Assembly (NCBI RefSeq): GCF_003334305.1 | Contig: NZ_QOWS01000016.1 | Strand: one strand, 5' to 3' | Length of the DNA: 64,000 nt | Source of the DNA: Escherichia coli | GTDB taxonomy: Bacteria; Pseudomonadota; Gammaproteobacteria; Enterobacterales; Enterobacteriaceae | Shown here: piece after piece, positions 53,592-56,367 of the stretch | Layout of the letters: every line of letters begins with the position of its first letter | Position numbering within the stretch: the stretch's first letter is position 1 | Position numbers and translations under genes: made by a program | The notes under the pieces: generated by a model | Databases searched by the model: none | Told to the model about the DNA's origin: nothing | Seen by the model: the letters and a program-made list of their open reading frames with translations, nothing else

Positions 53592-54560
53592 TTATGCGAG
53601 AACCAAATCCCCCTGCGGATGGCAGGAGCAGGCCAGTACGTAACCTTCAGCGATTTCGGCGTCGGTCAGCGTCATTGTACTGCTCACCGTATATTCACCG
53701 GAAACCACTTTTGTCTTACAGCAGCCGCAAACACCCGCACGGCAGGCAGCGACAACCGGAACGTTATTGCTTTCCAGCGCCTCCAGTAGCGTGGTGCCAA
53801 CCGGGGCGTAAAATTCTCGTGCCGGTTGCAGTTTGGTGAATTTCAGACCGCTGGTCGCCGCTTCTGCTACTGGGGTGAAGAATTTCTCTTTAAAGAAACG
53901 CGTCACGCCGAGCGCTTTCACTTCCTGCTCTACCCAATCCATATACGGAGCCGGGCCGCAGGTCATCACGGTACGTGAAGCTAAGTCAGGTACACCTGCC
54001 AGCAGTTCGCGAGTGAGACGACCAGCGATAAAGCCTTCGGTAACGTTATTTTCTGCCACCAGCGTTACCGGATAGTTACGCCACTCATCGGCGAAAATAA
54101 CATCCTGCGGCGTACGCACGTTGTAGATCACCCGCACATCGGCCTGTGGACGGTTCTTCGCAAGCCAGCGACGCATCGACATAATCGGCGTGACGCCGCA
54201 GCCTGCCGCCAGCAACAGGAATTTATCTTCTGCTTTATCGTCGCAGGTAAATTCCCCCATCGCGTCCGAAAGCCAGAGATAATCACCGCGTTTTACATCG
54301 CGCGTCAGCCACTGGGAGCCGACACCGTCATCAATCCGCCGCACGGTCAGGGTGATATATTCACTCACGCCTGGCGTGGAGGAAATGGTGTAAGCACGCA
54401 GCGTTTCCGCTGAGTTTCGCACGCTGACCAGTGCATATTGCCCGGCGCGATATGGGTAGTAATCGTGGCAAATCAGGGAAATCGTCCACACATCCGGCGT
54501 TTCTTGCGTAATGTGATGAACCTGCATCCGCCACGGGCATTGATTCGTTGGCATCGTCAT
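53592..54560 (-). CDS. hcr: NADH oxidoreductase for hybrid-cluster protein (FAD/[2Fe-2S])
   Basis: ATG 54560 gives 322 aa; C-terminal CRAGVCGCC 2Fe-2S ferredoxin motif. Confidence 0.9.
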   Translation of the reverse strand: MTMPTNQCPWRMQVHHITQETPDVWTISLICHDYYPYRAGQYALVSVRNSAETLRAYTISSTPGVSEYITLTVRRIDDGVGSQWLTRDVKRGDYLWLSDAMGEFTCDDKAEDKFLLLAAGCGVTPIMSMRRWLAKNRPQADVRVIYNVRTPQDVIFADEWRNYPVTLVAENNVTEGFIAGRLTRELLAGVPDLASRTVMTCGPAPYMDWVEQEVKALGVTRFFKEKFFTPVAEAATSGLKFTKLQPAREFYAPVGTTLLEALESNNVPVVAACRAGVCGCCKTKVVSGEYTVSSTMTLTDAEIAEGYVLACSCHPQGDLVLA

Positions 54561-54571
54561 CGACAAACTCC

Positions 54572-56224
54572 TTACGCGCTCAACAGTTGCTTCATGTCTT
54601 CTTCAACAGTGGTGATAGAACGCAGGCCAAATTTCTCGTTCAGCACCGCCAGCAGGTCTGGTGTCAGGAAACCAGGTGCAGTCGGGCCGGTGACGATATT
54701 TTTCACGCCCAGAGAAAGCAGCGTCAGCAGAATGACGATCGCTTTCTGTTCAAACCAGGAGAGCACCAGCGACAGCGGCAGATCGTTGACACCGCAGCCC
54801 AGTTTCTCTGCCAGAGTGACAGCCAGAATAATCGCTGAGTAAGCATCGTTACATTGACCTGCATCTACCAGACGCGGCAGACCTTCGATATCGCCAAACT
54901 CAAGTTTGTTAAAGCGATATTTACCACAGGCCAGGGTCAGGATCAGGCAGTCATCCGGCACGCTGGTGGCGAAATCGGTGAAGTAGTGGCGCTCGCCGCG
55001 TGCGCCGTCACAGCCACCAAGCAGGAAGATATGACGCAGTTTTTCACGGCTCACCAGATCAATCAGCGTATCCGCTGCGCCAAGCAGCGTCTGGCGGCCA
55101 AAGCCCACGGTGATCAGGTGCGGAATTTCGCTGTACGGGAAGCCCGCCATTTGTTGCGCCTGGGCGATGACCGCAGAAAAATCTTCGCCATCCAGATGAC
55201 GCACACCCGGCCAGCCAACGATGCTGCGGGTCCAGATACGATCGTCATAAGCGCCTACGGTTGGGTCGATGATGCAGTTCGAGGTCATCACGATGGGGCC
55301 AGGGAAACGAGCGAACTCTACTTGCTGATTCTGCCAGCCGCTGCCGTAGTTACCGACCAGATGCTTGAATTTACGCAGCTCCGGGTAGCCATGCGCAGGC
55401 AGCATTTCGCCGTGGGTGTAGACATTAACGCCCGTGCCTTCGGTCTGTTCCAGCAGGTTGTAGAGATCTTTGAGATCGTGACCGGAAATCAGAATGCATT
55501 TACCCGCCGTCGCTTTGACGTTGACCTGGGTTGGCGTCGGGTGACCGTATTTACCGGTTTCGCCTGCATCCAGAATGCTCATCACTTTGAAGTTCATCTG
55601 GCCGATTTCCATTGAACACTCAAGAAGCGCGTTCATATCGGCAGGCCAGGTCCCCAGCCACGCCATGATTTTATGGTACTGGGCATAAATATCGTTGTCG
55701 TATTGACCGAGAACATGCGCGTGTTCCATATAGGCCGCCGCACCTTTCAGGCCATACAGGCACAGCAGACGCAGGCCGAGAATGTTTTCGCCAATCGCCG
55801 CTTTATCTTTGTTAGGGGTAAATTCTGCTGCCTGACGTTGCAGCTCGCCGAGATCGTCGCTCACCAGTTGCAGGTCAGCCATCGGGTTATCGACGCGCGC
55901 GTTGGCATCTACAGCCAGGCATTGCGCTTTCAGCGCCTCGCGCAGGGCAATCGCTTCACGAGCGTAGCCGACAATACGCGGAGAATCGAAGTTAACGTTG
56001 GTCAGGGTTGAGAAAAAGGCACGTGGCGCGAAGCTGTCAACATCGTGGTTGATGATGCCGTATTCACGCGCTTTTACCGCCCAGGCAGAAAGCCCTTGCA
56101 GCGCCGCGATGAGTAAATCCTGAAGGTCAGAAGTTTCCGCCGTTTTACCACACATCCCCTGCGCGTATGAGCAGCCGTTTCCTGCCGGAGTACGGATAGT
56201 TTGTTCACATTGCACACAAAACAT
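54572..56224 (-). CDS. hcp: Hybrid-cluster protein (hydroxylamine reductase / NO-related)
   Basis: ATG 56224 gives 550 aa starting MFCVQCEQT with N-terminal Cys cluster. Confidence 0.9.
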
Positions 56225-56237
56225 GATCACACCTTTT

Positions 56238-56261
56238 AAAGTTATATTTAATATACATGTT
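56238..56261 (-). promoter_or_regulatory. AT-rich near-palindrome overlapping the hcp promoter; possible NsrR site
   Basis: Minus-strand AACATGTATATTAAATATAACTT is an imperfect dyad just upstream of hcp. Confidence 0.3.
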
Positions 56262-56320
56262 TAAGGTTAAGACGCTTAACGCGGGGATAAAAGGGATTTT
56301 TCATGCAACTTTAAGGGAGA

Positions 56321-56334
56321 TTGATTTAGCGCAA
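56321..56334 (-). promoter_or_regulatory. Candidate FNR box upstream of hcp
   Basis: TTGATTTAGCGCAA (minus-strand TTGCGCTAAATCAA) matches the FNR consensus TTGAT-N4-ATCAA in one full half-site and part of the other, about 100 bp upstream of hcp. Confidence 0.45.
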
Positions 56335-56367
56335 TTTTGGCGGCAGGGATCTACCGCCAGAGAGGTA

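Follow-up and report, generated by a model that had tools for sequence, protein, structure and literature searches.

The complete 143-bp intergenic region between lysO (ybjE) and hcp, which extends from the hcp start to the lysO stop (window positions 56225-56367), is almost certainly the regulatory region of hcp-hcr and acts as a two-signal AND gate, in which activation by FNR is combined with the relief of NsrR repression by nitric oxide (NO). The window is the whole stretch of 64,000 nucleotides of Escherichia coli DNA analysed here. The region holds an FNR box and an NsrR operator, both of which are occupied by their regulators in vivo and are conserved at a nearly fixed distance from each other across the Enterobacterales. 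Both operators were already known, having been predicted in 2005 and recovered by two genome-wide ChIP studies. Following that prediction, the two sites are said to have been mapped and tested in promoter-dissection papers by Filenko (2007) and Chismon (2010).

The hcp promoter is among the best-characterised nitrosative-stress promoters, and the analysis has little discovery value in this respect. It has value as a calibration: a reader who was given nothing but the sequence had correctly recovered two real operators. The two calls differ in what they rest on. The NsrR call is secure by its sequence score alone, which the FNR call is not; the latter had to be backed by position, conservation or ChIP.

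The lysO-hcp locus

What the window contains at this locus is a further copy of the E. coli hcp-hcr promoter, and nothing differs from K-12. Identity to MG1655 is 100% over 201 bp spanning the intergenic region, and the MG1655 RefSeq genes at the locus are b0873 and b0874 (hcp and lysO), with hcr (b0872) downstream. An 801-bp query around the interval was recovered from 5,425 of 5,426 complete E. coli genomes, with the flanking genes annotated as 'hcp: hydroxylamine reductase' and 'lysO'. The hcp regulatory region is bounded by the lysO stop codon at 56368-56370. At its other end, hcp begins with an ATG at 56224 on the minus strand, the translated product having the N-terminus MFCVQCEQT. The program-made list of open reading frames lets hcp begin at a GTG at 56230 (552 aa); the RefSeq annotation and the conserved N-terminus MFCVQCEQ place the start at the ATG (550 aa). 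A Shine-Dalgarno sequence, AAGGTG, is located at about 56230-56235. The features of the region are compiled in Table 1.

Table 1. Coordinates of genes and regulatory features at the lysO-hcp locus, numbered along the window.
Feature	Position	Strand	Basis
hcr	53592-54560		Downstream of hcp
hcp CDS (hybrid cluster protein)	54572..56224	-	ORF list, translation, MG1655 RefSeq annotation
Main NsrR operator, 11-1-11 inverted repeat AACATGTATAT-T-AAATATAACTT	56239..56261	-	Matrix, conservation, ChIP-seq
Putative hcp-hcr transcript start (+1)	56255	-	FNR centre 56327.5 and published -72.5
Candidate -10 hexamer TAACCT	56264..56269	-	T1, A2 and T6 conserved at at least 90%, middle bases vary
Second, weaker NsrR-like 23-mer AAGTTGCATGAAAAATCCCTTTT	56289..56311	-	18.1 bits, third best in window
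FNR box TTGATTTAGCGCAA (plus strand), TTGCGCTAAATCAA on hcp coding strand	56321..56334	-	Matrix, conservation, ChIP-seq
Predicted hairpin TGGCGGTAG-ATCC-CTGCCGCCA	56338..56359	-	Predicted stem of -16.5 kcal/mol; covariation
NarL/NarP 7-2-7 site TACCTCT-CT-GGCGGTA	56352..56367	-	Sequence; about 60% conserved
lysO (ybjE), gene upstream of hcp on the same strand	56368..57267	-	MG1655 RefSeq annotation mapped onto window

The NsrR operator

The earlier note had described an AT-rich imperfect dyad immediately upstream of the hcp start and had suggested it as the site of a nitrosative-stress repressor. The dyad is present and proves to be an NsrR-type inverted repeat, which reads AACATGTATATTAAATATAACTT on the coding strand (56261-56239) and AAGTTATATTTAATATACATGTT on the plus strand. 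The repeat occupies the stretch 15-37 bp before the hcp ATG, with its centre (56250) 26 bp from the ATG, and is imperfect in that its two half-sites agree at 7 of 11 positions. For scoring, we used a leave-one-out matrix derived from 25 ChIP-supported sites of the 11-1-11 type (Mehta 2015, Table 4), from which the hcp site had been omitted. With this matrix the repeat, a match to the consensus AAGATGCATTT-N-AAATGCATCTT, reaches 26.15 bits and ranks first in the 64 kb. None of 200 dinucleotide shuffles attained this score, the mean of the shuffle maxima being 14.0 bits.

The published data agree with this score. The identical 23-mer is the second-best 11-1-11 NsrR site in the genome of strain CFT073, with an ln P of -23.87 against a cut-off of -14.28, and the summit of the CFT073 NsrR ChIP-seq peak is located 22 bp upstream of the hcp start codon, over the 23-mer (Mehta 2015, PMC5320621). 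The matrix scan, which had been proposed in the earlier note as a check, is thus passed with the published matrix as well as with our own. At the level of expression, nitrate leads to a 44-fold induction of hcp (Mehta 2015, PMC5320621). In Salmonella, whose hcp promoter carries FNR and NsrR sites identical to those in the window, hcp mRNA is increased 284-fold in an nsrR mutant (PMC2884951). A Phcp::lacZ fusion (pNF383) serves as a standard reporter for NsrR and NO (PMC9052748). These data bear out the nitrosative-stress induction that the earlier note had attributed to the promoter.

The AT-rich dyad could in principle be core-promoter or leader sequence, or a site for Fur, IHF, Fis or IscR, with nitrite induction exerted through NarL/NarP alone. 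This reading would be in keeping with the base composition of the dyad, with its overlap with the putative transcript start and with the presence of a NarL/NarP 7-2-7 site upstream. It is very improbable in view of the NsrR matrix score of 26 bits that was reached in 0 of 200 shuffles, the position of the NsrR ChIP-seq summit and the derepression in the Salmonella nsrR mutant, in which the identical site is present. Moreover, where the sequence has drifted in other Enterobacterales, it approaches the NsrR consensus, as in AAGATGCATTTAAAATGAATCTT, which scores 29.9 bits. The dyad is therefore taken as the NsrR operator. Fur was tried as a binder of the dyad and rejected, since even its closest fit to the Fur consensus has mismatches at 9 of 19 positions.

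The FNR box and its conservation

As stated in the earlier note, an FNR box is found about 100 bp upstream of hcp; the distance to the ATG is 97 bp from the near edge of the box and 103.5 bp from its centre (56327.5). It agrees with the consensus TTGAT-N4-ATCAA at 8 of 10 positions, and matches to this consensus with no more than two mismatches are frequent in the window (52 observed vs 32.7 expected). Since consensus counting cannot tell the box from background, it was scored with a matrix and examined by phylogenetic footprinting. A leave-one-out matrix was built from 62 ChIP-bound boxes in Table S6 of Myers 2013, the hcp site being omitted; with it the box scores 13.4 bits (training range 11.9-21.5) and takes rank 3 in the window. 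Because a mean of 1.08 positions per dinucleotide-shuffled window score at least as high, the box is not distinctive by its sequence alone. The only two matches in the window that outscore it, at 5998 and 58598, are both published as ChIP-bound and both belong to the training set of the matrix.

For phylogenetic footprinting, 120 loci were retrieved from one-genome-per-species contigs with a degenerate pattern that covers hcp codons 1 to 9. Sequence of at least 200 bp upstream of hcp was available for 114 of them, and 86 Enterobacterales species were included in the footprint. Mean identity amounts to 96% in the FNR box and 87% in the NsrR site, compared to 49-65% in the flanks and intervening segments (62-65% in the flanks adjoining the FNR box). 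All 86 species possess an FNR box 100-111 bp and an NsrR site 24-33 bp before the ATG, the latter scoring between 19.4 and 30.4 bits; in three Yersinia species a second NsrR-like site scores slightly above this main site. Measured between their centres, the FNR box and the NsrR site are 77.5 bp apart in most Enterobacteriaceae. Most other Enterobacterales have a spacing of 76.5-79.5 bp, and the extremes are 72.5 bp (Mixta) and about 83 bp (Rahnella). Judged by this conservation in 86 species, the FNR box and the NsrR site are both significant. The same two blocks had been found by Rodionov 2005 in an alignment of eight enterobacterial hcp upstream regions and attributed to FNR and NsrR, the latter still unidentified at the time; the present footprint comprises ten times more genomes.

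Occupancy of the box by FNR has been observed directly. The exact sequence is given for an FNR ChIP-seq peak in Table S6 of Myers 2013 (PMC3688515), where it has a PatSer score of 13.11 and an ln P of -11.6 compared to a cut-off of -10.75, so that the FNR scan likewise proposed as a check exceeds its threshold. FNR peaks at hcp were obtained by both ChIP-seq and ChIP-chip, and hcp-hcr was classed as 'Activated' by FNR, in accordance with the anaerobic induction assumed in the earlier note; expression ratios of 0.43 for hcp and 0.40 for hcr are listed in a table whose column headings are unconfirmed (Myers 2013, PMC3688515). Neither of the outcomes that would have refuted the earlier note, sub-threshold matrix scores or a lack of expression change in the mutants, is thus seen for the two sites.

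Taken by itself, the sequence leaves room for the FNR-like box to have arisen by chance or to serve another member of the CRP/FNR family, with the anaerobic control of hcp being indirect: the agreement is limited to 8 of 10 consensus positions, the window holds 52 comparable matches, and about 1.1 equal matrix scores occur per shuffled window. A chance match is nevertheless excluded by conservation and ChIP, i.e. by the 96% identity of the box among 86 species, in which its distance from both the NsrR site and the ATG is fixed, and by the FNR ChIP-seq peak over the box of an FNR-activated operon (Myers 2013, PMC3688515), which leaves this reading highly unlikely.

The conserved box departs from the consensus in a regular manner. 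Its non-consensus half TTGCG (vs TTGAT) is kept in most of the 86 species, in most of which TTGCGCTAAATCAA is identical, and the AAAA flank of the box is likewise conserved; a stronger box, TTGAGCTA[A/T]ATCAA, occurs in a few genera only. The strong conservation of the TTGCG half-site suggests selection for a deliberately weak FNR site or an overlapping constraint. For the hcp promoter, footprinting or gel shifts with FNR and the loss of anaerobic induction upon mutation of the box have reportedly been published.

Outside the Enterobacterales, hcp promoters of Aeromonas (e.g. at loci L008, L015 and L030) show a perfect-consensus FNR-type box, TTGATCTGCATCAA, which scores 18.8 bits and is located 108.5 bp before the ATG. 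They do not show a good NsrR site of the 11-1-11 type (7-14 bits for the best matches), and this suggests that the genus uses another regulator for nitrogen oxides.

Transcript start and core promoter

The FNR site at hcp is located at -72.5 according to Table 1 of Myers 2013 (PMC3688515), citing Filenko 2005. When the FNR centre is set at -72.5, the transcript would start at 56255 and possess a leader of 31 nt. With this start, the centre of the NsrR operator would fall at +6, with a span from about -6 to +17, and the centre of the NarL/NarP 7-2-7 site at -104.5. Both positions agree with the numbers that Chismon et al. are said to have given in 2010 for NsrR (+6) and for NarL/NarP (-104.5). 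The start and the two derived positions are inferred from the value of -72.5 cited by Myers and from the geometry of the region. The fixed spacing of the FNR box from the NsrR site and the ATG is in line with -72.5, the predominant spacing of 77.5 bp corresponding to the distance from -72.5 to +6.

The earlier note had further placed the repressor site over the core promoter. This holds in part: the NsrR operator would cover the putative start, but it would not extend over the -35 and -10 hexamers. The hexamer TAACCT may tentatively be regarded as a weak -10 element. It is plausible because its T, A and T are conserved, and a weak element would be expected at an activator-dependent promoter. 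A scan of positions 56100-56500 for sigma-70 consensus promoters found none, which is uninformative since the promoter is activator-dependent.

In nitrite-free medium, no sigma-70 ChIP peak was observed at FNR-bound hcp (Myers 2013, PMC3688515). A block by NsrR at the start would predict just this, namely FNR-bound hcp lacking a sigma-70 peak, and the absent peak may thus reflect NsrR repression in the nitrite-free medium; as the alternative, Myers 2013 (PMC3688515) cite a report on sigma-E dependence of hcp.

Proposed mechanism

Taking these data together, the best-supported picture of the AND gate is as follows. Under anaerobiosis, dimers of [4Fe-4S]-FNR bind the box at -72.5 and, presumably in the manner of a class I activator, recruit RNA polymerase to the weak core promoter. 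In its holo form, the Fe-S repressor NsrR (Rrf2 family) binds its operator at about +6, where it would cover the start and block initiation, presumably by steric occlusion. Nitric oxide formed from nitrite or nitrate nitrosylates the NsrR cluster and releases the repressor from the DNA, which permits FNR-dependent transcription. Binding of NarL/NarP to the 7-2-7 site near -104.5 may add a boost by nitrate or nitrite.

The region might instead be conserved for an RNA element, in the leader of hcp or the trailer of lysO, and not for protein operators. The probability of this is negligible, and the reading is rejected on the basis of an Rfam scan of 56000-56600, which returned no family match even at E values up to 1. 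The region does contain a conserved hairpin with compensatory changes, but this is located on the upstream side of the FNR box, outside both flagged sites, and the two sites are themselves palindromes in the DNA that agree with independent matrices for proteins.

Further elements of the intergenic region

Apart from the FNR and NsrR operators, three elements are found in the region. The first is the NarL/NarP 7-2-7 site, which lies inside the flagged interval and was absent from the earlier note. Its centre is at 56359.5, and it is composed of two inverted heptamers 2 bp apart, of which TACCTCT matches TACYYMT at 7 of 7 positions and GGCGGTA (reverse complement TACCGCC) at 5 of 7. The 7-2-7 arrangement upstream of hcp has been described (PMC2718512), and a dependence of the hcp promoter on NarL/NarP is cited in PMC1274295.

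The second element is the weaker NsrR-like 23-mer, which includes the stretch AAGTTGCAT and would be centred near -45; the FNR centre lies upstream of it at a fixed distance of 27.5 bp. In 31 of the 86 Enterobacterales species the 23-mer scores 12.2 bits or more; strong versions are present in Yersinia, Pectobacterium, Kluyvera and Mangrovibacter, and degenerate ones in Salmonella, Enterobacter and Klebsiella. At hcp of CFT073, a third 11-mer, AAGTTGCATTA, has been reported (Mehta 2015, PMC5320621).

The third element is a predicted hairpin that begins 9 nt past the lysO stop and whose left arm coincides with the promoter-proximal NarL/NarP heptamer. Its stem is kept in 39 distinct Enterobacteriaceae versions with 33 different loops by means of compensatory changes. 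One pair occurs as U-A, U·G or C-G and never as C-A, another as G-C, C-G or A-U; the frequent U·G pair indicates an RNA on the lysO/hcp strand. No U-tract follows the hairpin and a terminator scan of 56100-56500 was negative; the hairpin is thus not a canonical intrinsic terminator.

That the second NsrR-like site and the hairpin after lysO are functional, so far undescribed features is conceivable, though we consider it rather doubtful. If it were true, the second site, which varies between lineages, could prevent the recruitment by FNR in some genera, and the hairpin could couple the formation of the lysO 3'-end to insulation of the hcp promoter.

Related promoters

The promoters of nrfA and hmp resemble that of hcp in that FNR and NsrR jointly (at nrfA also together with NarL/NarP) link anaerobiosis with nitrogen-oxide signals. 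They differ from it in their arrangement or in the role of FNR: at nrfA, FNR is positioned at -41.5 (class II) with NsrR upstream, whereas at hcp FNR is at -72.5 with NsrR on the start, and at hmp FNR acts as a repressor. Both nrfA and hmp are NsrR targets (Mehta 2015, PMC5320621). The ytfE promoter is similar to that of hcp in possessing an 11-1-11 NsrR operator near the start of an NO-stress gene, the two sites ranking first (ytfE) and second (hcp) in the CFT073 scan (PMC5320621). In contrast to hcp, the ytfE operator is near-perfect, AAGATGCATTTAAAATGCATCTT, and no FNR box was found for ytfE in the accessible portion of Table S6 of Myers 2013 (PMC3688515). Finally, the hcp promoters of anaerobes and Vibrionales that are controlled by HcpR or NorR2 share the target gene and its induction by nitrogen oxides (Rodionov 2005), but differ in regulator and motif, HcpR being an activator of the FNR family and NorR2 a sigma-54 activator; neither is used in E. 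coli.

Other FNR sites in the window

The top FNR match in the window is TTGATGTGCGTCAA at 5998-6011 with 16.3 bits, which corresponds to the ChIP-bound ybiY/fsaA site of Myers 2013 (PMC3688515). The other match that outscores the hcp box, TTGATTTAGGGCAA at 58598-58611, is situated between aqpZ and ybjD, with aqpZ about 141-154 bp further downstream; 13 of its 14 positions are identical to those of the hcp box, and it scores higher, at 14.5 bits. Myers 2013 (PMC3688515) give it among the predicted sites, for an FNR ChIP-seq peak in overlap with IHF enrichment. When window positions are compared with the older MG1655 numbering used by Myers, the ybiY/fsaA box is 23 bp off, and one constant offset fits both the hcp and the aqpZ boxes.
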